From a virus, in the UHGV virus genome UHGV-1512937: a stretch of DNA of 36,416 nt; one strand, written 5' to 3'. The notes under the pieces are model-generated. The model saw only the letters and a list, made by a program, of their open reading frames with translations, was not told the DNA's origin and did not search any database. Shown one piece after another: positions 259 through 34,866 of the stretch (positions are counted from its first letter, which is position 1; every line of letters starts with the position of its first letter). The position numbers and the translations under genes were made by a program.

Positions 259-648
259 TTACTCTTTTTTCTCCGTATCTGCATCGGGTTCATCAGCAAA
301 TAGCTTGCCCTGCATCCGATCCAGTTCTTCTTTTCTTACCCGCTTAACCACGCTGTAGACCCACTGAAGCGAAACACCAAATTTGCGGGCCAGTTCGTGG
401 TGGTTGCGTCCGTTAAACTCCCTGAAGATTTCCCGGTCGCGCTGACTGACCTTCCATACCATGCCCATTGGGAAATAAACGTTTTGCCCGCCCCAGACCT
501 GCATCATTCGGTTCGCGACAGCCTGACCAATCTGGTCGGCAATTGCGGGCTCAATATCAATAATCTCGCGAACGGTCTCAGAGGTATGCTGTGCCAGTTC
601 CACCAGGAGTTCCGGCCCTTTACTTCGAAACTGATTCAGGTCGCTCAT
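259..648 (-). CDS. Mor/C-family transcriptional activator (middle/late gene activator)
   Basis: 129 aa ORF at the distal end of the minus-strand early operon; C-terminal HTH-like segment (EIFREFNGRNHHELARKFGVSLQWVYSVVK) resembles the Mu Mor/C family; GGGAG Shine-Dalgarno 6 nt upstream of the ATG. Family call from memory, not searched. Confidence 0.6.
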   Translation of the reverse strand: MSDLNQFRSKGPELLVELAQHTSETVREIIDIEPAIADQIGQAVANRMMQVWGGQNVYFPMGMVWKVSQRDREIFREFNGRNHHELARKFGVSLQWVYSVVKRVRKEELDRMQGKLFADEPDADTEKKE

Positions 649-3876: not shown

Positions 3877-5043
3877 TTAAACCCCTTTGACAACGTCAGC
3901 GTTGACCTGTGGAACCCCGATTTCAGCGGCCAGATTCATGGCGGCTATCACCAGGTTACTGACGGCCAGCGGATACAACAGGCTGACCATATTTTTACGA
4001 TGACTTCCCGGATTGCTCAGGCGGGCACGTATGGCATCCACTGCACTGGCGTCCATAATGTCCGTCAGTTGTTTACCTGCCCGTTGCAGTTTGAACGTCA
4101 GAAACTCTTCAAGGTTATTGTCCAGAGGCAGAAGTTCGACCACCTCACAGCGCTGAACGACTTCACGGACTTCCATATTGCGTTCAGACAGTTTTGTCGC
4201 CAGTTCCGGCTGGCCAATCAGCACGATGGACAGCAGTTTTTTGAAACCGGACTCCAGCTCAAAAAAGCGTTTGAGGTGTTTCAGTGTCGGAATGGGCAGA
4301 CTGTGGGCCTCCTCAATCACCAGAACGTGGCTGAACCCCGCCTGGCTGCTGTCTTTCAGGACGCGATGCAACTGGCGAAAGCGGGCGTCCTGACTGCGTC
4401 TGATGCTTTCCAGTGGTGCGATGGTACTGATAATGGCTTCGGCAATAGCTGCTGCCTTCAGGGTTTTCCCTTTCACATCGTTGTCTTCCATAGCGATGAT
4501 GTATGGCTCGATAACAATTACCGGCGCATTCTCGCGGTTGATACGTTCAGTCAGGTCGCGGCGCAGCGTGGATTTACCCGCACCGGACTCACCGATGACG
4601 GCCATAAACCCACCATGACGGGCTGTCTGGTACAACGCCTCACGCACGTAGCGAATGTCCGGGGTGGTGAACACATCATCAGAACCCTGCATGGCTTCGT
4701 CGGCGAACGGGTCACGGAAAAGACCAAACGCTTTTTTGGTTGCCGGGAATAACACCTGTTTTTTGAGTAACATATTCTCTTCCTCACTGAGGCTCGTTTT
4801 ATCTGTGGTACCCGCTGTACGGGGAGTGGCCGCGCCCTGTACAGCATCAAAACTCTTCGCTGTATCAATCCCCTGACTTTCCAACCAGGACGCAAGACGC
4901 CGGCGCACTTCTCCGGGGCTGGTGCGGGGCCACGCGTTATGATTCACAATCTGGGCCAGCGTGGCCTCAGAAACATCGACAGCTCTCGCCACCACCGCCT
5001 GTGGAATACGGGCCTCTTTCAGTTGCTGCTTCAGTACCAGCAT
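3877..5043 (-). CDS. transposition ATPase / target DNA activator (MuB-like AAA+ protein)
   Basis: Walker A GESGAGKST and Walker B VLVIEEAH in the translation; sits immediately downstream of the transposase. Start set at the internal ATG (MLVLKQQLKE) preceded by GAGGAGG rather than the ORF-track start at 5070. Confidence 0.8.
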   Translation of the reverse strand: MLVLKQQLKEARIPQAVVARAVDVSEATLAQIVNHNAWPRTSPGEVRRRLASWLESQGIDTAKSFDAVQGAATPRTAGTTDKTSLSEEENMLLKKQVLFPATKKAFGLFRDPFADEAMQGSDDVFTTPDIRYVREALYQTARHGGFMAVIGESGAGKSTLRRDLTERINRENAPVIVIEPYIIAMEDNDVKGKTLKAAAIAEAIISTIAPLESIRRSQDARFRQLHRVLKDSSQAGFSHVLVIEEAHSLPIPTLKHLKRFFELESGFKKLLSIVLIGQPELATKLSERNMEVREVVQRCEVVELLPLDNNLEEFLTFKLQRAGKQLTDIMDASAVDAIRARLSNPGSHRKNMVSLLYPLAVSNLVIAAMNLAAEIGVPQVNADVVKGV

Positions 5044-6826: not shown

Positions 6827-7738
6827 TTATGCCTCCAGCCCGTTAATCTGTGGCGTCGGCTCAGTCAGCCATGAAGGCGCGACATCGCCTGTTGGCTCGT
6901 CCGGCAGGTCAAATGTGGAGCGCAGGCTACGCGCTGTGCTTTCCAGTTGACAGACCAGGCCTGCCATGAAGTCTCTGGGGGTATCAATCATGTTTTCAGC
7001 ACAATATGCGCACAGTGTCTCAAAAGCGCTGGACAGTCGAACGGCGATGGCAGATTCCGCCTCAACCGCTAACGCGGTCACTTCCGCCCGCAGTTTCTTC
7101 ACCTCTTCATCAGGCTCAGGTGGCTGAATACGGGATTTCTTCTCCAGTCTGGTGGAGAGTGAGTCTATTTTTTCATTTTTATCGGCGAGAACACGCTGTT
7201 GTGCTGCGTTGGTTTCGCGCGCTTCACGCAGGGCCTGACGCAATTCACGTACTGACATGCGATCAACATCGTCAAGCGTCATGCCGGCAACTGTGCCGCC
7301 GTCGGCCAGTTCGGCAAGCTCTTCGTCGTCTTCTGTCATTAATTCGAAAAGTTTGGCTTTTCCCAAATGTGCCAACGTTGGCACATTTGGTTTCAGCGCC
7401 GGGGATAAGTATTTTGTCGATGCTTGCATCATTCTCACAGATGTCCGGTATGCCAGCCCCAACTCACTTTCAAGAATCTTTATAAACTCCCCGTGTGGTT
7501 CATTTTCCTTAAGGATTATCAGCCGCTTACCTGCCTCCAGCATGGCCTCAGCGCTCTGTGCCATATAAAAGCGTGCCTCATGGACAACACGATCGCGCTC
7601 ATAGGGCAGACCATCGCCGAACTGTTGCATGATTTCCATGCGATGCTGTGTCATGGCGTTTAGACTGACATTGAGATCATCCGACAGCGGTACCTCGACG
7701 TTCAGTTCAGTGCTAACCGGTGATTTGGTGCGTCCCAT
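6827..7738 (-). CDS. conserved early-region protein, coiled-coil rich; function unknown
   Basis: 303 aa ORF directly upstream of the transposase in the same operon; acidic and helix-rich. Confidence 0.55.
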   Translation of the reverse strand: MGRTKSPVSTELNVEVPLSDDLNVSLNAMTQHRMEIMQQFGDGLPYERDRVVHEARFYMAQSAEAMLEAGKRLIILKENEPHGEFIKILESELGLAYRTSVRMMQASTKYLSPALKPNVPTLAHLGKAKLFELMTEDDEELAELADGGTVAGMTLDDVDRMSVRELRQALREARETNAAQQRVLADKNEKIDSLSTRLEKKSRIQPPEPDEEVKKLRAEVTALAVEAESAIAVRLSSAFETLCAYCAENMIDTPRDFMAGLVCQLESTARSLRSTFDLPDEPTGDVAPSWLTEPTPQINGLEA

Positions 7739-8298: not shown

Positions 8299-8384
8299 TG
8301 TTGTCTCCTTTGTTGATGCAATGATGTTTGTTTTATATGTGATAGATTATGAGAACCATTGTTCTCATTGTCAATGAGGTTTAT
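8299..8384. promoter_or_regulatory. divergent early/repressor control region with a 6-4-6 inverted repeat (GAGAAC CATT GTTCTC, 8351-8366); candidate operator
   Basis: AT-rich 86-bp interval between the Ner-like gene and the preferred repressor start; inverted repeat read directly from the sequence. No promoter hexamers were matched. Confidence 0.35.
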
Positions 8385-8810
8385 GTGAATTTTGATTCTC
8401 TTTGCGCGTCGCGGTTCAAAGCTGAGCGTTCGCGGTTATCACTCAAGCAGGCTGAAGTAGCAGCCCTTTGTGGCGTTTCAAGAGAAATGTGGGGGAAATA
8501 TGAACGAGGGGTTGCAGTTCCCGGAGGTGAGTTACTTGCAGCCTTTGCAAGAATTGGGGCCAACGTACAGTTCATTCTTACTGGGGAATCATCAGGTATA
8601 ACTTTATCACGTGATGAAATGGAGTTACTTCAGCACTACCGGCAAGCACCGTTACAAGTCAAAGGTTCAGTTTTGTCGGCATTGACGACTGGCTCCTCCA
8701 GAGAACGGGCGGAACAGGTTATTCATGGAGATGTTCTGGGGAATGTTATCAAAGGTAACGTAACCATAGGAACAGGTGGAATAATGAACAAAAATACAAA
8801 GAGAAAATGA
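8385..8810 (+). CDS. XRE-family HTH repressor (putative prophage lysogeny repressor)
   Basis: HTH LSLKQAEVAALCGVSREMWGKYERG near the N-terminus; GTG at 8385 has GAGG 5 nt upstream, while the in-frame ATG at 8349 lacks an RBS; divergent from the early operon. Confidence 0.6.
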   Translation: MNFDSLCASRFKAERSRLSLKQAEVAALCGVSREMWGKYERGVAVPGGELLAAFARIGANVQFILTGESSGITLSRDEMELLQHYRQAPLQVKGSVLSALTTGSSRERAEQVIHGDVLGNVIKGNVTIGTGGIMNKNTKRK

Positions 8811-9793
8811 GTAAAGAGAAGCAAACAGTTAACGGAGATGTGGGTAACGTTGTCAGCGGTGATGTTACCATTCATAACTATTCTGCTGACATACTTCCCT
8901 CTGCCCAGCAACCAATTTCGTTGCTGCAAAAACGCGATTTACACAGATTGATGGATGAATTGGTTGATCTGGGGGAAAGTAAGCGCGAACTATGGATGAC
9001 GATCCACACGAAACTTAATACCAAAACAGTTAATGAAATGACTGCGGCTGATTATCATGGTGCGGTTGAGATCCTCCAGAGATATGCACAACAGATCCAG
9101 AATATGAAGGACTGTAATCTTCTGGTCAGCAAAATAATGGTGCTTACTGACCCTAGGTATCGTCTTGACCGTGACAGATACTGTCTGAAGCATTTCGGTA
9201 CAACCCATCTTAAAGGCCTGGACAAAGAGCAGTTGCAGGCTGTGTTTGGTTATTTTGATGATCTGCTGAATATTCGTGATGAGAGTAAAACTCTATCACC
9301 TCCATCGGACAGCGGGGCAAAATCAGTCGCGACTGTACCAACCAGAAGCCGGAAGCCTCATGTAGTAGTGTTGGGGGGAGCGTTAGTTCTTGTCGCAATA
9401 TTTTTCGTGGGAATGATTGTGTTCGCTGGTAAATGGGGAAATGCTAAAGCAGTAGCATCTACTGAAACCAGCGTTTTTAACATTAAAACCAACGACAAAA
9501 TAATAGAAGATTCCATCCCAGCATTACGCAGCATGTTTCCAGGGTTAAATAAGTACTCAGATGATTTCCATTCGGTTTCAAGCTACAAGCAAAAATCGGG
9601 CTGGCATACCCTTAAATTCACGGTGTCTACACAGGCAATAATACCTGAATCTTATGGTGTTAAAGGGAAAACTTGTTACATCAACATAAACCCCGATGGT
9701 CGTTATGCCCGTGTTTTGACCGCCCCATGTAGAGCTCTATTACTTGACCAACAAAACACTCCAGATAGTAAATATCGTTATATTTTGAAATAG
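8807..9793 (+). CDS. bitopic membrane protein of unknown function (accessory 'moron' gene A)
   Basis: 328 aa; ATG overlaps the repressor stop (ATGA at 8807-8810); single predicted TM helix (HVVVLGGALVLVAIFFVGMIVFAG) separating a ~185 aa N-terminal domain from a ~120 aa C-terminal domain; visibly AT-richer than flanking phage genes. Confidence 0.6.
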   Translation: MSKEKQTVNGDVGNVVSGDVTIHNYSADILPSAQQPISLLQKRDLHRLMDELVDLGESKRELWMTIHTKLNTKTVNEMTAADYHGAVEILQRYAQQIQNMKDCNLLVSKIMVLTDPRYRLDRDRYCLKHFGTTHLKGLDKEQLQAVFGYFDDLLNIRDESKTLSPPSDSGAKSVATVPTRSRKPHVVVLGGALVLVAIFFVGMIVFAGKWGNAKAVASTETSVFNIKTNDKIIEDSIPALRSMFPGLNKYSDDFHSVSSYKQKSGWHTLKFTVSTQAIIPESYGVKGKTCYININPDGRYARVLTAPCRALLLDQQNTPDSKYRYILK

Positions 9794-9813
9794 AAAATAA
9801 CTGCGAGGCTATT

Positions 9814-10425
9814 ATGGGGCTAATTAAACGATATAGAACAGATTATCCGAACCAAGTACATCAACTTTCTGTTGCTGTTTCAAAGCATTATTATGCGGGA
9901 GTTGATGGATTGCTTAAGTACCAGAAAAAACCATTTGATATAAAACTTAGCAATGCAAGTAAAACTGGAAAAGATCATTTACTAGTCTATTCGTTACGCG
10001 ATCACTACAGTGGTTTGTTTTATATAGAATTGGCATTTCTTTCTACACCACAACCTATAACAGCTTTTTTGGGAAGGGCATGGAGGCCAAAGGAAGATAA
10101 CGTGTTACAGGGTCTTCCTGATATGCTGATGATCCCCAAAACTGTAGAAGATGAGTTCCCTAACGTATGTAATGCCGTTTATAACCAAGGAGTTGATCTT
10201 TTAAAAGTAACCAGCGGTTTTCAGAGTGGAGGGCTTATCGCCATACGAGCGGTAGAGGAAGATCTTAAATTCTACACAAATACTCCTATAGCACGAGTTC
10301 GTGAGGTTGCGGTTAAAACATGCAGATACAATGCTAATGATATCGCCCGAACCAATAAAGAAACAAAGCAAGAGATGTGGTTACGAAACGTCGGTCAGAT
10401 AGATATACCTTCTCCAGATTTTTGA
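9814..10425 (+). CDS. soluble protein of unknown function (accessory 'moron' gene B)
   Basis: 203 aa ORF 20 nt downstream of gene A on the same strand; AT-rich; no recognisable motif. Confidence 0.55.
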   Translation: MGLIKRYRTDYPNQVHQLSVAVSKHYYAGVDGLLKYQKKPFDIKLSNASKTGKDHLLVYSLRDHYSGLFYIELAFLSTPQPITAFLGRAWRPKEDNVLQGLPDMLMIPKTVEDEFPNVCNAVYNQGVDLLKVTSGFQSGGLIAIRAVEEDLKFYTNTPIARVREVAVKTCRYNANDIARTNKETKQEMWLRNVGQIDIPSPDF

Positions 10426-10687
10426 AACCTGAAATCACGGTGTCGACGGTTCATTCTGACGCATCATTTATTCTCGTCAGTTGCCTCATATTCGTGCGTG
10501 CTAGGAAACATCGGCCAGAATATGTCTGGCATGGCGGCGTTTACAACCAATCCATGGAGCGATGGGGAATGTCTGCATTTTCATAATCTGTAACCCTTTT
10601 ATAATTATAAAAAATATGGCAGGCTAGTCTGGTCTCGCGAGACTGACTGAACCTCGGTCGGCTCACAGTGCATTCCTGTGGGGCGAT

Positions 10688-10719
10688 GACCAGCCCGGAG
10701 TTCGGGTACCGGGCTGGTC
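10688..10719. other. perfect 11-bp-stem hairpin (GACCAGCCCGG / CCGGGCTGGTC, 10-nt loop); candidate terminator or structured RNA
   Basis: Inverted repeat read directly from the sequence, followed by GTTCTTTC; lies in a ~400-bp non-coding gap; a 12-bp palindrome GTCTCGCGAGAC sits at 10632-10643. Confidence 0.4.
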
Positions 10720-10834
10720 GTTCTTTCACTGTCAGAGTTCAGAGTGAAGTTTTGAGATACATGATTTCTATTAACGCGATTTACTGGATGCATTACCTAC
10801 GTGCAGTGTTTGTTCGATAAGGATTGTTTTCTGA

Positions 10835-11410
10835 ATGGGAACGTATTACACACTTGATTCCGCTAGTCGTCTGCCTTCGCCTTGTCATGTAATTACCGGA
10901 AAATACGAGCCTGAAATGCCAGAACTGGCCGCTTTTCTTCATCAGATGTATCCCAATGGCCTTTCGAGTCACGGGTATAACTATCTCTATAACCCCGGCC
11001 CTAAAATGGAAGATGACAGTGGAATCAGCAGAAGTCTGCTGGTCGGTCTGGTGTTTGAGTTAGTTCGCCGTAGCCATTTTCCTGATAAACCTTCCCGCTA
11101 TCAGTCACTGTTTGCCTGTCAGCATCTGAGTGAAGTCAGGAAGTTCAGGGAATTACTGGCTGATGAGAGAGGCGAAGACGAAATAAGAACGGCACCGATA
11201 TATGAAGTCATCACAAATGAGCAGGTGCATCGCGGAGATATGAGGTTATTGAACAGTGATTGCCCGGTGCTGGAACTGTATCACCGTGCTTGGCTTTACT
11301 GGTCGGGTGAAGCAGCCCCAGTTAAGACTGGTGAGGACGAACCGTTCTGGGAACTGCTGATTCCGCTTCCAGTATTCGTTGGTCGAAGGATAACTGAATC
11401 GCAGGATTAG
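10835..11410 (+). CDS. hypothetical protein
   Basis: 191 aa ORF with AAGGA upstream of the ATG; its 3' end overlaps a convergent minus-strand ORF by 89 bp. Confidence 0.4.
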   Translation: MGTYYTLDSASRLPSPCHVITGKYEPEMPELAAFLHQMYPNGLSSHGYNYLYNPGPKMEDDSGISRSLLVGLVFELVRRSHFPDKPSRYQSLFACQHLSEVRKFRELLADERGEDEIRTAPIYEVITNEQVHRGDMRLLNSDCPVLELYHRAWLYWSGEAAPVKTGEDEPFWELLIPLPVFVGRRITESQD

Positions 11411-11645
11411 GTGCGGTTTTATATCGTGATGTCGCCGCCACATCGCCAATTAGCATGACGTTGTTTTCTCCGCTGGCGAAATGACTTCTTCTCTCTTCAA
11501 GTGCAACCAGAACGTTTTTCAGCTCTATAATCGCTTCGGTTGGACAACATGCATCCAAGCTTAGCGTGTAAGTTTTATTCTGCTCTCCGATTCTGCTCCC
11601 AAAGAGGAACCCTTTTTTAATACCAGACTGTTTCGGTTCAGTCAT
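11322..11645 (-). CDS. hypothetical protein with strong RBS
   Basis: Internal ATG at 11645 (MTEPKQSGIKKGFLFG...) is preceded by GGGGAGG at optimal spacing; ~107 aa; divergent from the late operon. Confidence 0.5.
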   Translation of the reverse strand: MTEPKQSGIKKGFLFGSRIGEQNKTYTLSLDACCPTEAIIELKNVLVALEERRSHFASGENNVMLIGDVAATSRYKTAPNPAIQLSFDQRILEAESAVPRTVRPHQS

Positions 11646-11775
11646 TGTGCTTGCCTCCCCTATGTTTTGTGTGCGACCATTCTGGTCGCTTCCCTCTGCG
11701 AACACTTATAACGCGCTTTAAAATCCGTATCCCGCCACATTTGTGATGCTGTCTCCACCAAACAAGGAGACACAC

Positions 11776-12126
11776 ATGAAAAGCCTGAAAAAATTCATTC
11801 CCCCTGTTAAAAAACCTCGCCTCAGCGGCTGGCTGCTGACCTCAGTGCTGTTGCTGGGCACCATCGCTCTGGTCTCGCCACAGCAGTTGCCTGTTGTGAT
11901 CTACAAGCTGGCACTCATCACGCTGGCAGCAGTGCTGGGTTACTGGCTTGACCGTTCGCTCTTCCCCAAAGCCCGTCCCGGTCAGTACCTGAAACATGAA
12001 GACAGGCTGATGGCTGAAGGGCGTTTCCCTGTGCAGACCGGCCTTCACCTTGTATTTTCTGCTGCGTTAATCCGCCGTGCACTGATTGTTGCAGCGGTCT
12101 GTCTGGCTGTGGCAACAGGACTGTGA
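11776..12126 (+). CDS. putative holin / small membrane lysis protein
   Basis: ATG at 11776 preceded by AAGGAGA; ~116 aa with hydrophobic helices (LSGWLLTSVLLLGTIALV, LALITLAAVLGYWL, IVAAVCLAVATGL); immediately upstream of the transglycosylase gene. Confidence 0.5.
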   Translation: MKSLKKFIPPVKKPRLSGWLLTSVLLLGTIALVSPQQLPVVIYKLALITLAAVLGYWLDRSLFPKARPGQYLKHEDRLMAEGRFPVQTGLHLVFSAALIRRALIVAAVCLAVATGL

Positions 12127-12128
12127 CC

Positions 12129-12857
12129 ATGAACTGGCCTCAAATCACCCTCATTATTCTGTTCGCCTTTGGTCTGGGCGTAACCGCCATCAGACACGGC
12201 GAACCACGTAACGATAAATACAGCTTCTGGTGGCAGCTTGCTGGCAACCTGGTGATTGTCTGGCTGCTCTGGTGTGGTGGCTTCTTCAGTCAGGCCCGCG
12301 CAGCGCAGCCTCCGCAGGCTGCGCTGCAGTATCGCGATGATGTGATCCGTAATGCCCGGCTTGAATGGGGACTGTCTGCGCCGGTGGCAGATTTCGCCGC
12401 GCAACTGCATCAGGAAAGCGGCTGGCGACCTGATGCGGTCTCGCCGGCTGGTGCTCAGGGACTGGCGCAGTTCATGCCTGCCACTGCCGACTGGATAAGT
12501 CAGCTGATGCCGGGACTTAACAGCCGTGAGCCGTTTAATCCGGCATGGGCCATCCGGGCGCTGGTCAGCTATGACCGCTGGCTGTGGCAGCGCGTCAGCG
12601 CCGCCAACGACTGCGAGCGTATGGCCATGACACTGTCAGGCTATAACGGTGGTCTGGGCTGGGTACAACGGGACAGGCGGCTTGCATCACAGAAAGGTCT
12701 GGACAGCACCCGCTGGTTCGGACATGTCGCCACGGTGAATGCCGGACGCAATGCGGCCAGCTGGCGGGAGAACCGCCATTATCCGCAGCGCATCCTGCGC
12801 GAACTGGCACCGCGATATCTCACATGGGGAGGCAGCAGTTGTGTGGCATCTGGTTAA
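12129..12857 (+). CDS. lytic transglycosylase (SLT-domain endolysin) with N-terminal membrane/signal-anchor region
   Basis: SLT-like catalytic motif LHQESGWRPDAVSPAGAQGLAQFMP; hydrophobic N-terminus (ITLIILFAFGLGVTAI, LVIVWLLWCGGFF). In-frame GTG at 12123 is an alternative start. Confidence 0.8.
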   Translation: MNWPQITLIILFAFGLGVTAIRHGEPRNDKYSFWWQLAGNLVIVWLLWCGGFFSQARAAQPPQAALQYRDDVIRNARLEWGLSAPVADFAAQLHQESGWRPDAVSPAGAQGLAQFMPATADWISQLMPGLNSREPFNPAWAIRALVSYDRWLWQRVSAANDCERMAMTLSGYNGGLGWVQRDRRLASQKGLDSTRWFGHVATVNAGRNAASWRENRHYPQRILRELAPRYLTWGGSSCVASG

Positions 12858-20362: not shown

Positions 20363-21316
20363 ATGTCTGATTACTTAAAAGGTAAACGTGTCGTTGATCC
20401 GGTACTGACCAGTATCGCCCGAGGCTATAAAAATGCCGCATTCATTGGCGAACGTATTTTCCCCGTCGTGCTGACGGACAAGGAAGGCGTGCGTGTGCCG
20501 ACCTTCGGGAAAACCGCCTTTGTGGAATATGACACTGAGCGTGCCGTCGGGGCGGACAGCAATGTTCTGGTCCGTGAGAAAACCGGCACGCTTGATCTGG
20601 TGCTGGGTGAGCACGATCTGGCTGCGCCGGTGGACTATCGCGAGCAGGCGGAGTCCATGTTTAACGAGGAGAGCAAGGCCATCCGTCGCGCCACGAATGG
20701 CGTGAATCTGCGCCGTGAACTTATCGCCGCCCGTCTGGCTCAGGATGAAAAGGTCTACCGTACCGGGCACGTTAAAAAACTGACAGCCAGTGATCGCTGG
20801 GCCGGTGGTAAGGGGGACCCCATCGGGGTGATTGAAGCCGGTATGGAAGCGGTCCGTACGGCCACGGGGCTGCGTCCTAACCTGATGACCATGGGTGCCA
20901 GCGTGATGGCGCTGCTGAAGTTCCACCCGGCGATTCAGGCTGCCATCGGAGCCAACGAACGCAAGCGCATCACTACGGAGATCCTGCAGGACCTCTTTCA
21001 GATCGAAGAGATCGTCATCGGTGCCCCTGTCTCCCTGCCATCCATGAAAGCGGCAATGGATAGGGACAGCGTGCCGGCGGATATCTGGGGAGACAACCTG
21101 ATGCTGCACTACGTCGGCAAGCCGCAGCCGGGGGCGGACAGCGCGGACGAGAACGAGCCGTCCTTCGGCTACACCCTGCGCCGTAAGGGGATGCCTGTTG
21201 CAGACAAATACGACGGTGCCGGTGGCAAGGTGAAGTACTGCCGTTATACCGATATCTACAAAGTCGCCGTGGTTGGTGGCGATGCCGGGTATCTCATCAC
21301 CGGTATCAGTAAATAA
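20363..21316 (+). CDS. major capsid protein (Mu T-like)
   Basis: 317 aa; AAGGAGA RBS; position after the I-like gene. Confidence 0.8.
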   Translation: MSDYLKGKRVVDPVLTSIARGYKNAAFIGERIFPVVLTDKEGVRVPTFGKTAFVEYDTERAVGADSNVLVREKTGTLDLVLGEHDLAAPVDYREQAESMFNEESKAIRRATNGVNLRRELIAARLAQDEKVYRTGHVKKLTASDRWAGGKGDPIGVIEAGMEAVRTATGLRPNLMTMGASVMALLKFHPAIQAAIGANERKRITTEILQDLFQIEEIVIGAPVSLPSMKAAMDRDSVPADIWGDNLMLHYVGKPQPGADSADENEPSFGYTLRRKGMPVADKYDGAGGKVKYCRYTDIYKVAVVGGDAGYLITGISK

Positions 21317-29218: not shown

Positions 29219-30360
29219 ACAGTACTGCGCAAGCCACATCAGCGTTAACCGGCGTCAGCGATGTGCTGACGCCGGTATTCACTCTGTGGTATTTGCAGAA
29301 AAACATCACCTCTGATATCGCGCCTTATGTCACCCGTGTGGTCTGGAGCGATAACATCAAAAATGAGTCCGATACCATTGAGGTGGAGCTGGACGACACC
29401 GATGGCCGCTGGCTGGATAAGTGGTATCCGGGCAAGGGTGACACGCTGACGCTGAAAATGGGTTATCAGGGCGAGAAACTGCTGTCCTACGGTACATTCT
29501 CAATAGACGAGATCGAAGTGAGTTCGCCCGCGTCCGTTGTCGCTATCCGTGGGGTGGCCACCTCGGTTAACAGTGCTCTGCGGACTAAATCCAGCCGTGG
29601 TTTTGAGAACACCACGCTGGCAGCTGTTGCGGGTCGGATTGCCAGAAAGCACCGGCTGAAACTGGTGGGCAGCATTGAGTCCATCAGAATCGACCGGGTG
29701 ACCCAGTATGCTGAAACCGACGTGGGTTTTCTGCGCCGGCTGGCCAGCGAGTATGGTTATGCAGTGAAAGTGGTCAGTGACCAGTTGATTTTTTCTCATC
29801 TGGCCACATTGCGCAGTCAGGAGCCGGTCAGGCAGTTAAAACCGCAGGATGTGGCCCACTTTTCCCTGCGTGACACCATCAACCGGGTCTATAAATCTGC
29901 AAAGGTAAAACACCAGAAAAGCAGCAGTAAAAAACTGATCGTCTACGAAGCTGATGGTGGTACCCGTGAAAGCGACAAAAAGCTCAAAGGCGGTAAGGTT
30001 ACCAGCGCTGACTCACTTAAAGTTAACAGCCGCGTCAGCGACCCGGACAGTGCCCGGATTAAAGCGGATTCAGCACTGGCCAGACATAACGAATACCAGC
30101 AGAACGGCTCCCTGACGCTGACGGGAACGCCTCAACTGACAGCAGGCAACAAAATTGAACTGGTGGGCTTTGGACAATTATCCGGTCCATGGCTGATAAT
30201 CACTGCCCGCCATGCGTTTGAGCGTAACAGCGGCTACACCACAGAGCTGGAAGTGGCACGGGGGCCAGTCACAAGAGGGAAAAAACAAAAAACTCAGAAA
30301 CTCACGGTTTATCACCCGGATGGCAGTACATCGACGGTGATTAAGGAGAAGAAAAAATGA
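29206..30360 (+). CDS. baseplate hub / late control gene D-like protein (P2 gpD, Mu gp44 family)
   Basis: 384 aa; size and order after the tape measure and U/X genes. Confidence 0.75.
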   Translation: MAEINSTAQATSALTGVSDVLTPVFTLWYLQKNITSDIAPYVTRVVWSDNIKNESDTIEVELDDTDGRWLDKWYPGKGDTLTLKMGYQGEKLLSYGTFSIDEIEVSSPASVVAIRGVATSVNSALRTKSSRGFENTTLAAVAGRIARKHRLKLVGSIESIRIDRVTQYAETDVGFLRRLASEYGYAVKVVSDQLIFSHLATLRSQEPVRQLKPQDVAHFSLRDTINRVYKSAKVKHQKSSSKKLIVYEADGGTRESDKKLKGGKVTSADSLKVNSRVSDPDSARIKADSALARHNEYQQNGSLTLTGTPQLTAGNKIELVGFGQLSGPWLIITARHAFERNSGYTTELEVARGPVTRGKKQKTQKLTVYHPDGSTSTVIKEKKK

Positions 30361-32245: not shown

Positions 32246-33339
32246 CAGAACCCGATTTTATTGAACTCGATGCCGATAAAATCACGGCAGAAATGATTGC
32301 GAAATATGAAGCGGATACCGGCAAAACGTTGTACCCGGCACAGGCAGAACGTCTGCTGATAGATCTGTGGGCCTATCGCGAAATGCTGGTCAGGGTGGCG
32401 GTACAGGAGGCGGCGAAGCTGAATCTGGTCGCCTTTTCCCGGGAGCCGATGATTGATTACCTCGGAGAACTGGTTGGTGTATACCGCCTTCCCGCGCAGC
32501 CTGCCACCACCACACTTCAGTTCTCTGTGGATGAGGCACTGGCCATTGATGTGCTGATCCCGGCAGGCACCCGCGTCAGCGCTTCCGACAGCGTGATTTT
32601 TGCCACCGATACAGATGTAGTGCTGAAGGCCGGTTTGCAACTGGTCAATGCCCCTGCCACCTGTACTGAGCCGGGTACCTCTGGCAACGGCTGGCAACCG
32701 GCTCAGGTCAGTCAGCTGCTTGATGAGATTGATAACGTTGACCTGCTGGTGACCAATCTGACGGCCAGCACTGGCGGTTCAGAGCAGGAAGACAATGACC
32801 GACTCCGGGAGCGTATCAGGCTGGCCCCGGAGTCATTCACCAATGCCGGAAGCCGTGGTGCATACCGTTTTCATGCCATGGGGGCGCATCCCAGTATTGT
32901 CGACGTCGCTGTTCTTTCTCCCGTTCCCGGTACTGTCGAGCTGTATCCACTGCTCAGCACTGGTCTGCCAGACAGCAGTATCCTCACTCTGGTAGAGAGT
33001 TTCTGTTCTGACGAAAAAGTCAGACCACTCACTGATACCGTGCGGGCTAAAACACCTGTTCAGGTGGATTACACCATTGAAGCCAGGATTACGATCTATC
33101 GTGATCAGGATGCAATGTCGGTAAAGGACAACGCTAACAGCGCCATACAGAACTGGGTGGCATCACGTGCCGCCACGCTGGGACGCGATATTGTCCCCAG
33201 CCAGATTATCAGTGCATTGTCCGTTTCCGGGGTGTACCAGGTTGAACTGGTGACACCGGCACTGCGGGTGGTTGCAGAAAACGAATGGGCAAACTGTACG
33301 GCAATCACTCTTAACGTGACAGGGGTGTCCGATGGCTGA
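32236..33339 (+). CDS. baseplate protein J-like
   Basis: 367 aa; overlaps gpW-like end; order W-J-I-fibre. Confidence 0.75.
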   Translation: MALTEPDFIELDADKITAEMIAKYEADTGKTLYPAQAERLLIDLWAYREMLVRVAVQEAAKLNLVAFSREPMIDYLGELVGVYRLPAQPATTTLQFSVDEALAIDVLIPAGTRVSASDSVIFATDTDVVLKAGLQLVNAPATCTEPGTSGNGWQPAQVSQLLDEIDNVDLLVTNLTASTGGSEQEDNDRLRERIRLAPESFTNAGSRGAYRFHAMGAHPSIVDVAVLSPVPGTVELYPLLSTGLPDSSILTLVESFCSDEKVRPLTDTVRAKTPVQVDYTIEARITIYRDQDAMSVKDNANSAIQNWVASRAATLGRDIVPSQIISALSVSGVYQVELVTPALRVVAENEWANCTAITLNVTGVSDG

Positions 33340-33910
33340 GGCGCTACGACTACCGCCACCGCTTGAGGGTGATATCAGTCTCAAAACGCTGGGAAGACTG
33401 GCCGAACGGCTGGATAACATCGACCTGAGCGTACTGATGGTCTGTCTCGTCGATATCGTCGACAGTTCCGCGCTGCCATGGCTGGGCGAGCAGTTCTCGT
33501 TGTTCGGCGATGGCTGGGAACTGGCGGAATCGGACGATGTACGCCGCATGCTTATCAAATCCGCTATCGAGCTACACCGCTATAAAGGAACGCCGTGGTC
33601 AATCCGGGAAATTATCCGCCGTTTTGGCTTTGGCGAAGTAGAGCTGATAGAAGGTACGGGGCAGATCGGCTACGACGGTAAACACAGTTACAACGGACTT
33701 TTCGTCCATGGCGATGCACAAGCCTGGGCAGTCTATCGGGTCATCCTTCAACAGCCCATCACTAATGATCAGGCAGCGCTGTTACGTCAGACGCTCGCTG
33801 CCTTTGCTCCGGCTCGCTGCCATCTGGCAAGCCTGGAATATCAGTCTGTCGCCATTCGATACAACAGTACTACCCGTTATGACGGTAGTTACAACCACGG
33901 GAGCAGTTAA
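33332..33910 (+). CDS. tail protein I-like (baseplate / fibre attachment)
   Basis: 192 aa; overlaps the gpJ-like end; precedes the fibre gene. Confidence 0.65.
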   Translation: MAEALRLPPPLEGDISLKTLGRLAERLDNIDLSVLMVCLVDIVDSSALPWLGEQFSLFGDGWELAESDDVRRMLIKSAIELHRYKGTPWSIREIIRRFGFGEVELIEGTGQIGYDGKHSYNGLFVHGDAQAWAVYRVILQQPITNDQAALLRQTLAAFAPARCHLASLEYQSVAIRYNSTTRYDGSYNHGSS

Positions 33911-33912
33911 TT

Positions 33913-34866
33913 ATGGCAAATCTACCTGAAACCCCACAGTGGGAAGACGGCATCTACCAGATTGAGGTCTCTGACCCCGTTCTGGGCGGGCCTGACGGAA
34001 TTTCTAACCGTCAGGGTAAACAACTGGCCAGCCGCACGCTGTACCTGAAGCAACAGGTTGAAAAAGGCGGGGCTGACCTTGCGAAACACATCGCGGCAGC
34101 AGACCCGCATGCCCAGTATGCACCGAAAGCCAGTCCGGCATTCACCGGCACACCAACAGCACCTACACCTGCAAATGGCGATAACAGCAAAAAGCTGGCG
34201 ACGACGGAGTTTGTGGCCAAAGCACTTGCGGCGCTTGCAGGCAGCGCCCCTGAGACACTGGATACGCTTAAAGAGCTGGCTGACGCTCTCGGTAATGATC
34301 CAAACTTTGCGACTACGGTACTGAACAAGCTGGCGGAAAAGCTGGCTAAAGACCAGAACGGCGCAGATATTCCTGATCCTGCGCTGTTTGTCAAAAACCT
34401 TGGTTTGGGGGAAGGCTCTGCACTGCCCGTTGGTGTGCCCGTTCCGTGGCCCTCAGCAACACCGCCAACGGGCTGGCTGAAATGTAACGGCGCAGCATTT
34501 TCTTCTGAAATGTACCCCAGGCTGGCAAAGGCTTATCCGACCAATAAATTACCGGATTTACGGGGCGAATTTATCCGTGGCTGGGATGACGGACGAGGTA
34601 TTGATGCAGGACGAGAGATACTTTCATTTCAGGAAGGCACTATCGTCTCCGGTTTTGATGATAATGATACTGGGGATATCAGTTCACTCAGCTCAACACA
34701 ATACGGATTTGGTGACACTTTAACCTCTAATCAATGGGGGGCCATAAATGGCAAAAAGTGGATATTTGATGCATCCAGTAAAGGTGCCAAAAAATATGAC
34801 TGGTGGGCTTATGTATCAGCTCGTCCGCGTAATATTGCATTTAATTACATCGTAAGAGCGGCATAG
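33913..34866 (+). CDS. tail fibre protein with lambda Stf / P2 H-like C-terminal receptor-binding domain (cassette V1 fused to the constant part)
   Basis: 317 aa; TLDTLKELADALGNDPNFATT resembles the conserved fibre repeat of P2 H and lambda Stf; the C-terminal part (GEGSALPVGVPVPWPS ... LPDLRGEFIRGWDDGRG ... NIAFNYIVRAA) resembles the lambda Stf C-terminus and tail-collar domain. Confidence 0.85.
   Translation: MANLPETPQWEDGIYQIEVSDPVLGGPDGISNRQGKQLASRTLYLKQQVEKGGADLAKHIAAADPHAQYAPKASPAFTGTPTAPTPANGDNSKKLATTEFVAKALAALAGSAPETLDTLKELADALGNDPNFATTVLNKLAEKLAKDQNGADIPDPALFVKNLGLGEGSALPVGVPVPWPSATPPTGWLKCNGAAFSSEMYPRLAKAYPTNKLPDLRGEFIRGWDDGRGIDAGREILSFQEGTIVSGFDDNDTGDISSLSSTQYGFGDTLTSNQWGAINGKKWIFDASSKGAKKYDWWAYVSARPRNIAFNYIVRAA
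34388..34413. promoter_or_regulatory. Hin/Gin-family (serine invertase) crossover site inside the tail fibre ORF
   Basis: TTGTCAAAAACCTTGGTTTGGGGGAA matches the remembered hixL sequence (TTATCAAAAACCTTGGTTTTCAAGAA) at about 21 of 26 positions and Mu gixL similarly; it lies exactly where the fibre constant part meets the variable C-terminus. Confidence 0.6.

Follow-up and report, generated by a model that had tools for sequence, protein, structure and literature searches.

The small RNA sar of phage P22, an antisense regulator of ant in the imm I operon, is transcribed against the direction of that operon. From a promoter close to where the regulated gene begins, it spans the intercistronic region and terminates at a hairpin. 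Here we describe a conserved module of about 140 bp, at positions 10585-10728 of the virus genome UHGV-1512937 (36,416 nucleotides, analysed at full length and called the window below), which is predicted from its sequence to share that antisense layout on the + strand and which is usually found head-to-head with a phage gene for DNA adenine methylase (dam). The module has no sequence or Rfam relationship to sar, being made of three conserved stem-loops that occur in many phage types, and whereas sar overlaps the ant ribosome-binding site, the predicted RNA starts upstream of that of dam. RNA-OUT of IS10/Tn10, which acts against RNA-IN, offers a second likeness: the promoters are head-to-head, a structured antisense RNA limits a potentially harmful DNA-acting enzyme, and there is a thematic tie to Dam methylation. 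RNA-OUT, however, consists of one stem-loop that complements the region of the start codon, its promoter is inside the coding region, and it has no homology to the module. Lambda OOP is alike in layout. Restriction-modification systems also use small antisense transcripts tied to the control of methyltransferase or restriction genes (e.g. EcoRI Rna0 and Rna1), but these are located within coding regions and are not known to form conserved structures of several stems, while the module accompanies an orphan phage Dam. In gut metagenomes, the D12-methyl motif precedes methylase genes on their sense strand. Together with the c4 antisense RNA of P1/P7, also in Rfam, it resembles the module as a phage- or methylase-associated structured RNA, and the module gives no threshold match to either.

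The reading that we favour, with moderate confidence, is that the module is a small RNA gene which would normally be the antisense partner of a dam or com-dam leader and limit methylase synthesis, and which in the window is orphaned and doubles as an insulator before a late promoter. The original prediction had picked out a hairpin, a palindrome and an AT-rich, TATAAT-like stretch, and had offered as explanations a terminator of the repressor operon, a small regulatory RNA or a protein-binding site. All three features are where it placed them. The hairpin (10688-10719) has 11-nt arms GACCAGCCCGG (10688-10698) and CCGGGCTGGTC (10709-10719) that are 100% complementary around a 10-nt loop; the 12-bp palindrome GTCTCGCGAGAC is present at 10632-10643; and TATAAT occupies 10600-10605 within a 16-bp perfect palindrome, TTTTATAATTATAAAA (10597-10612). 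They are parts of one conserved module, and among the explanations offered the small regulatory RNA is the best supported: the structure covaries, its G·U pairs favour one strand, an extended -10 is conserved and the 3′ end resembles a terminator. Perfect stems of 11 bp or more that enclose a loop of at most 12 nt occur at four places in the window against 0.14 in dinucleotide shuffles, so the hairpin is not a random occurrence. Perfect palindromes of 12 bp number nine against 9.5 expected; taken alone the palindrome is unremarkable, and it gains meaning only because it caps a stem-loop that is conserved in relatives. On either strand, the 171-nt region has a better fold than its shuffles (z of -2.5 on + and -3.8 on -).

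The decisive evidence is the comparison of related prophages for compensatory base changes, a check that the original prediction had itself proposed. Two alignments were examined, A4 with 60 sequences and A5 with 62 distinct sequences that were not used for model building. Across A4, 89.5% of cells are paired (74.4% when shuffled; 27-47% in slid controls), 30 of the 38 pairs have changed on both sides, and compensatory cells number 325 against 99 in shuffles. A5 gives 92.6% of cells paired versus 78.1% shuffled. The originally reported hairpin, stem-loop 4 in our numbering, is conserved and covaries throughout: in each alignment both sides of all 11 of its pairs have changed and 92-95% of cells are paired, and its loop keeps the motif UGUU...GCA. 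In A4 the helix of stem-loop 3 is 93.6% paired, and changes affect both sides of 8 of its 12 pairs. RNAalifold, when left unguided, finds stem-loops 3 and 4, and it predicts stem-loop 3 independently on A5. At the apex of stem-loop 2, compensatory changes turn GTCTCGCGAGAC into GTTCTCGAGAAC, GTCATCGATGAC, CCGTAGCTACGG, GCCGCGTCGACGTGGC and others. The linker between stem-loops 2 and 3 is conserved and single-stranded in both alignments; no pairing partner for it is supported by covariation, and it may act as a pairing seed. The short overlapping open reading frames (ORFs) that cross the gap had been regarded as non-coding, and the variation among relatives, which consists of loop-length indels and paired compensatory changes, agrees with this. 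Three further pairings were considered and rejected. An AGGCT/AGCCT closing helix around stem-loop 2 and a helix P1 around stem-loop 1 show no convincing covariation, and AGGCT is better read as a -10 because it varies (TAGAAT, TAGACT, TACACT) without compensation. The linker as an anti-Shine-Dalgarno element for dam was dropped too, the AGCCUU/AAGGCU complementarity not covarying in the E. coli subgroup.

The strand on which this structure is selected follows from stem-loop 3. Its fold is worth -14.6 kcal/mol on the + strand and -7.5 on the - strand, with + better in 59 of 60 sequences, and it contains 203 G·U pairs on + versus one on -. The whole core behaves alike (-51.6 versus -42.1 kcal/mol, + better in 54 of 60), and the strand bias of stem-loop 2 is weak. 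From the G·U pairs and fold energies of stem-loop 3, the selected molecule is therefore a + strand RNA, antisense to dam, and not a dam leader. Such a leader, for example a Com-type translational operator on the dam-sense strand, is what Mu com-mom would lead one to expect: there, as here, a late DNA-modification gene is under several layers of control, and some dam cassettes carry a Com-like gene beside the module. A Mu Com-like zinc-finger ORF (M..IRCGHCGR..) stands between module and dam in phage B3 (ORF47) and in seven loci (L029, L036, L046, L057, L059, L069 and L079), and the window region also folds well on the - strand. In Mu, however, Com binds a regulatory hairpin of the sense mRNA, whereas the structure of the module is selected on the opposite strand. 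On the dam-sense strand its G·U pairs become A·C mismatches and stem-loop 3 loses half of its stability in 59 of the 60 sequences. Moreover, most cassettes, those of E. coli included, lack a com gene, as does the window. We consider a sense-strand leader scarcely credible, and the strand test on the fold and G·U counts of stem-loop 3 rules it out.

The module is linked to dam throughout its range. Upstream regions from a dam-anchored set of 80 loci (one genome per species) were aligned and used to build a covariance model, R1, which finds the module in about 75 of the 80, in every case on the strand opposite to dam and abutting its start codon. Hosts of the R1 matches are Gamma- and Betaproteobacteria, with Enterobacterales (Trabulsiella, Erwinia, Photorhabdus, Xenorhabdus, Serratia) as well as Iodobacter, Chromobacterium, Methylophaga, Nitrosomonas and Burkholderia. 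Vibrio phage VP882 (61.6 bits), Burkholderia phages phiE125 and KS9 and Pseudomonas phage B3 carry the module too, and the dam-module unit is found in Mu-like, BcepMu-like, lambda-like (phiE125, KS9) and linear-plasmid (VP882) phages of these two classes. In VP882 (NC_009016) the dam gene is gp37, and the predicted RNA would lie on the other strand, at 20,842-21,007. In a reverse test, 80 viral contigs were fetched by the stem-loop 3 pattern; 73 have true elements, of which 69 have dam on the opposite strand at a distance of 64-119 nt. The other four contigs (L121/L164, L126 and L165) have a module and no dam. The L121/L164 copy (4848-4981, in window orientation) lies between two co-directional tail-fibre-like genes, antisense to both and 43 nt from the start of the downstream one, on the opposite strand. 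Where a com gene precedes dam, the module abuts the com start just as it abuts the dam start elsewhere (the B3 copy is at 2194-2345 of L087). In phiE125, KS9, VP882 and B3 the antisense module fills the gap between dam or com and a co-directional late gene (Rz, gpD or a tail chaperone), with no gene upstream on the module's own strand. Because of this layout, the conserved role of the module is tied to dam and not to the repressor operon, and, the module lying there between co-directional genes, any read-through dam mRNA must carry the exact complement of the RNA. Two dam loci, L045 (Yersinia pekkanenii) and L066 (Pantoea), have no module and show clusters of GATC sites just upstream of dam instead, which suggests a different, methylation-based control of dam.

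The window itself, a BcepMu-like transposable prophage of E. coli, retains only the beginning of dam. The original description of the region as a non-coding gap of about 400 bp had seen the structure and overlooked both the dam remnant and the link to dam; the gap is a composite of a dam stub (10501-10584), the structured module (10585-10728) and a late-promoter motif (10771-10783). By megablast and blastn, positions 10504-10728 match the 5′ end of dam and its upstream region at 80-93% identity in about 530 other E. coli genomes, PhiKM and Klebsiella phage KP12, and the comparison indicates that the + strand accessory ORFs at 8807-10425 have taken the place of the remainder of dam. All of the features that had been flagged fall in the former 145 bp upstream of dam, which are more conserved among relatives than the dam coding sequence. 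Against HN68, the closest relative that bears dam, the stub reaches only 79% identity and its conserved GGK motif is altered; 17 of 81 positions differ in the stub but only 5 of 144 in the module (Fisher p = 7e-5). No such contrast is seen for two dam-bearing phages (3/81 in the stub equivalent, 9/141 in the module), and the module has therefore been kept under constraint after dam was lost. As judged from these comparisons, the RNA gene is orphaned in the window prophage, yet intact.

This persistence bears on a different explanation, in which the module encodes a small RNA that acts in trans on host or phage mRNAs independently of dam, and travels with dam as one mobile cassette. Trans-acting small RNAs are known from related settings, namely VpdS of VP882 and StxS of Stx phages. 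The module stands at 96.5% identity versus 79% for the stub although dam is gone, true dam-less elements exist in the four viral contigs named above, the linker and the UGUU...GCA motif of stem-loop 4 are conserved in sequence, as a seed or protein contact would be, and the ribosome-binding site of dam lies outside the predicted RNA. We nevertheless consider a purely trans-acting RNA unlikely. The linkage to the dam or com start is tight and of fixed geometry (69 of 73 viral elements, about 75 of 80 genomes) and holds over at least five unrelated phage architectures; even in L121/L164 the module still abuts the start of an opposite-strand gene, and no trans target was identified.

Signals for transcription of the + strand flank the structure on both sides. 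A family-wide extended -10 (TGnTAnnnT) appears in the window as TGG-CAGGCT at 10617-10625, directly 5′ of stem-loop 2. Its TAnnnT hexamer is found in 78 of 99 distinct relatives, mostly 11-15 nt before the centre of stem-loop 2, and in 40 of them together with TGn; the hexamer varies (TAGGCT, TAGAAT, TAGACT, TAAGCT, TACACT, TATATT) while the A and T of the -10 are invariant. The AT-rich palindrome at 10597-10612 corresponds to TTTTCA-N5-TGAAAA in relatives, and the promoter-like arrangement TTTTCA-N16-TATAAT (10578-10605 on +, with TTTTCA at 10578-10583) is specific to this E. coli subgroup. From these positions, transcription would probably start near 10631-10633, or near 10612 if TATAAT is used. 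At the other end, stem-loop 4 has the G+C-rich stem of a terminator, with 9 of 11 pairs G-C, and can be extended to 14 pairs in the RNA fold. A simple terminator scan flags it on the + strand only, there being no T-run after the stem on the - strand, and the tails of relatives are C/U-rich, some with 6-8 U a few nucleotides further on. The transcript is predicted to end near 10724-10728, giving a predicted RNA of about 95-115 nt. Between stem-loop 4 and the late-promoter motif, no conserved - strand promoter for dam was seen in the BcepMu-like relatives.

The palindrome could alternatively work at the level of DNA, as an operator for a dimeric protein, or the stem-loops could form in single-stranded DNA and serve as a signal for priming or recombination. 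In nearly all cases the apex of stem-loop 2 is a loop-less perfect palindrome (TCGCGA, GTCGAC, ACCGGT, GTGCAC and others) with little strand bias, and its position, about +1 to +25 relative to the putative promoter, is typical of operators. A protein-binding site, as the original prediction had put it, is nevertheless not borne out: the phage has no second copy of the palindrome, which is unique in the window even when three mismatches are allowed (13 matches versus 14.2 expected), and its half-site sequences are not conserved, varying freely between phages with only the symmetry kept. The strong one-strand G·U bias of stem-loop 3 and the U-rich tail after stem-loop 4 likewise point to RNA, and we judge a DNA-level function very improbable.

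Beyond the RNA tail, a motif, TTAACGCnnTTTA(AAAT), is conserved in the BcepMu-like relatives, in which the module lies 35-50 bp before it. Its dyad is about 42 bp upstream of a plausible start, and the phage encodes a Mor-family activator; by analogy with what is known of Mu Pm and the Mu late promoters, we infer that the motif is a Mor-dependent late promoter. In HN68 a single copy stands directly before the holin gene, DUF2441 is absent and the holin follows directly after the RNA module; in the window, positions 11706-11775 are nearly identical to HN68 (L005, 3757-3828). Because two motif copies bracket the DUF2441 gene here and one is present in HN68, DUF2441 appears to be an inserted accessory gene, and the insertion looks like the product of recombination at the promoter. 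The arrangement recalls lambda 6S and StxS, the PR′-tR′ transcripts, in that the BcepMu-like module combines a promoter, a short structured RNA and a terminator, co-directional with and upstream of lysis and late genes. It differs from them in having a Mor activator and not a Q antiterminator, and late genes with their own putative Mor-type promoter after the terminator; moreover, in phiE125, KS9, VP882 and B3 the module is antisense to the late genes, as a PR′-tR′ leader would not be.

These surroundings also accommodate a simpler explanation, that stem-loop 4 is a plain terminator or insulator which stops + strand, repressor-side transcription before the late promoter, the upstream stem-loops serving to stabilise the 3′ end. 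Past the repressor-side genes, no terminator-like signal on the + strand comes before stem-loop 4, which is also the only one between the ORF at 9814-10425 and the late genes, and its spacing from the Mor-type promoter in BcepMu-like phages suits such a role. In HN68 there is no room for a terminator, since the last gene on the repressor side runs into the 3′ end of dam, and read-through could therefore run antisense through dam as far as stem-loop 4. This much of the original proposal of a repressor-operon terminator stands, namely a terminator-like hairpin on the + strand. The link to a repressor falls away, as phiE125, KS9, VP882 and B3 have no repressor operon nearby; these phages have no same-strand gene upstream, and the module is oriented against the late genes that flank it. 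Conservation is as strong in stem-loops 2 and 3, the linker and the loop motif as in the terminator stem, and a conserved extended -10 stands just 5′ of the structure. Termination as the sole function is thus, in our estimate, improbable.

Returning to the antisense RNA gene that we favour, its operation can be outlined as follows. Positions 10585-10728 would form a self-contained + strand small-RNA gene, consisting of the -10, stem-loop 2, the linker, stem-loop 3, and stem-loop 4 with its tail. In its usual setting the module stands head-to-head with the start codon of a phage dam gene or of a com-dam pair, and a dam mRNA starting further upstream must then carry the exact complement of the RNA in its leader. 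The RNA may pair with the dam leader, leading to duplex formation or RNase III cleavage, and its transcription may also collide with that of dam (promoter collision), so that methylase synthesis would be held low until late transcription is strong. In the window prophage, the RNA terminator would be the only + strand one between the repressor-side accessory genes and the Mor-dependent promoter of DUF2441 and the lysis genes. Production of the RNA, its start site and dam as its target are, in this outline, inferred from comparative sequence evidence.

Several observations weigh against this interpretation. With a start about 7 nt downstream of the -10, as predicted, the RNA would begin within stem-loop 2, whose outer pairs would be left out although they covary. 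In contrast to classic antisense repressors, the predicted RNA also leaves the ribosome-binding site and start codon of dam uncovered. For an RNA loop, the apex of stem-loop 2 is unusual in being almost invariably a perfect palindrome, of a sequence that varies by phage. The tail GTTCTTTC has five T in eight and is interrupted, so that termination may be inefficient. In the BcepMu-like phages, the overlap of dam and module transcripts is an assumption, the dam promoter not having been located. Alignments made with a covariance model lean towards the structure of that model. Finally, 4 of the 73 viral contigs have the module and lack dam, and together with its conservation in the window, this argues against dam regulation as the sole function of the module.

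A broader formulation, which we regard as plausible but hold less firmly, is that the module represents an undescribed family of phage small RNAs, forming one mobile unit with dam or com-dam and timing the methylase, with an additional dam-independent role in lysis-gene insulation or in trans. Such a second, dam-independent function would explain why the module has survived intact here after dam was lost. A covariance-model search, which the original prediction had suggested, assigned it to no known family: Rfam 15 at the gathering threshold matched nothing in the window and 12 relatives, and at E values up to 10 the sole match within 10400-10900 was a chance microRNA at 15.9 bits against a threshold of 90. 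No description of the RNA was found in the literature on BcepMu, on VP882 small RNAs and on antisense RNAs paired with methylases, a search that did not cover the VP882 small-RNA study (Sprenger et al. 2024). The kind would be one already known, the phage-encoded structured antisense small RNA, of which this appears to be an uncatalogued member with unusually strong comparative support.

If correct, this interpretation would bring a widespread family of phage RNAs into the catalogue, and a conserved RNA partner would amount to a general control mechanism for dam cassettes. Phage-borne orphan Dam methylases affect host epigenetics, mismatch repair and restriction evasion, and to our knowledge the control of their expression is largely unknown outside Mu mom. 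VP882, B3, phiE125 and the E. coli prophages offer tractable systems for experiments. For annotation, the 'structured gap' would be replaced by a dam pseudogene stub, a putative RNA gene and a putative Mor-type late promoter. Coordinates of these features and their neighbours are collected in Table 1.

Table 1. Features of the module and its surroundings in the window, in order of position.
Feature	Position	Strand	Details
Mor-family activator gene	259-648	-	End of the early operon
Helix-turn-helix (HTH) repressor	8349-8810	+	
Two ORFs of unknown function	8807-9793 and 9814-10425	+	In place of the rest of dam
dam (DNA adenine methylase) stub	10501-10584	-	27 codons and stop, MKMQTFPIAPWIGCKRRHARHILADVS*; megablast/blastn and translation
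Predicted RNA promoter region	10585-10625	+	Formerly the dam ribosome-binding region on the other strand; promoter scan
Stem-loop 2	10626-10648	+	AGTC-TG-GTCTCG/CGAGAC-T-GACT; apex is the 12-bp palindrome 10632-10643
Linker	10649-10656	+	GAACCTCG here, (A/G)GCCUUGG in most relatives; conserved, single-stranded
Stem-loop 3	10657-10687	+	GGTCGGCTCACAG / loop TGCATTC / CTGTGGGGCGAT; 12-pair helix, G·U-rich
Stem-loop 4 and U-rich tail	10688-10727	+	11-bp hairpin 10688-10719, tail GTTCTTTC; terminator-like on + only
Putative late-promoter motif, copy 1	10769-10790	+	TTAACGCGATTTA at 10771-10783; 45-60 bp upstream of the DUF2441 gene; motif search
DUF2441 gene	10835-11410	+	Pfam PF10386; between the two motif copies
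Putative late-promoter motif, copy 2, and holin leader	11706-11775	+	ATAACGCGCTTTA at 11708-11720; holin ATG at 11776

The prophage around the module is organised as follows. The region is 100% identical in B7A and 15 other genomes. On the - strand, the leftward early genes encode an HTH regulator, DUF3102, an rve transposase, an AAA ATPase and, at the end of the operon, the Mor-family activator; 3′ of the gap, DUF2441 is followed by the holin, an SLT lysin and the structural genes. A search for tRNA and tmRNA genes found none in the window. The ORFs that occupy the place of dam encode 328 aa and 203 aa; the first matches phrog_10002, whose function is unknown, and neither has a Pfam or PADLOC match. 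PADLOC likewise gave no matches for DUF2441, and Pfam and PHROG searches of these two ORFs, DUF2441 and the ORF at 11322-11645 returned nothing informative. The slot between repressor and dam holds different cargo in each relative, in HN68 a nucleoid-associated protein and a 401-aa ORF.

Other observations concern the rest of the window. The - strand ORF at 11322-11645 encodes 107 aa, is unannotated and not called by PGAP in B7A, and has no Pfam or PHROG match; it overlaps the 3′ end of DUF2441 convergently and has a strong Shine-Dalgarno sequence, GGGGAGG, 8 nt before its ATG at 11645. The B7A prophage (L086) carries an IS2 in the baseplate region (32759-33987), and the window is without it, so that its host was a strain other than B7A. 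Two more perfect hairpins, with stems of 12-13 bp, lie within the SLT lysin gene and a late gene (12300-12327 and 29248-29276). A 28-bp perfect palindrome, CCAAATGTGCCAACGTTGGCACATTTGG, is located at 7363-7390 within the - strand DUF3102 gene (6827-7738), stems of that length being expected about 0.14 times per window.

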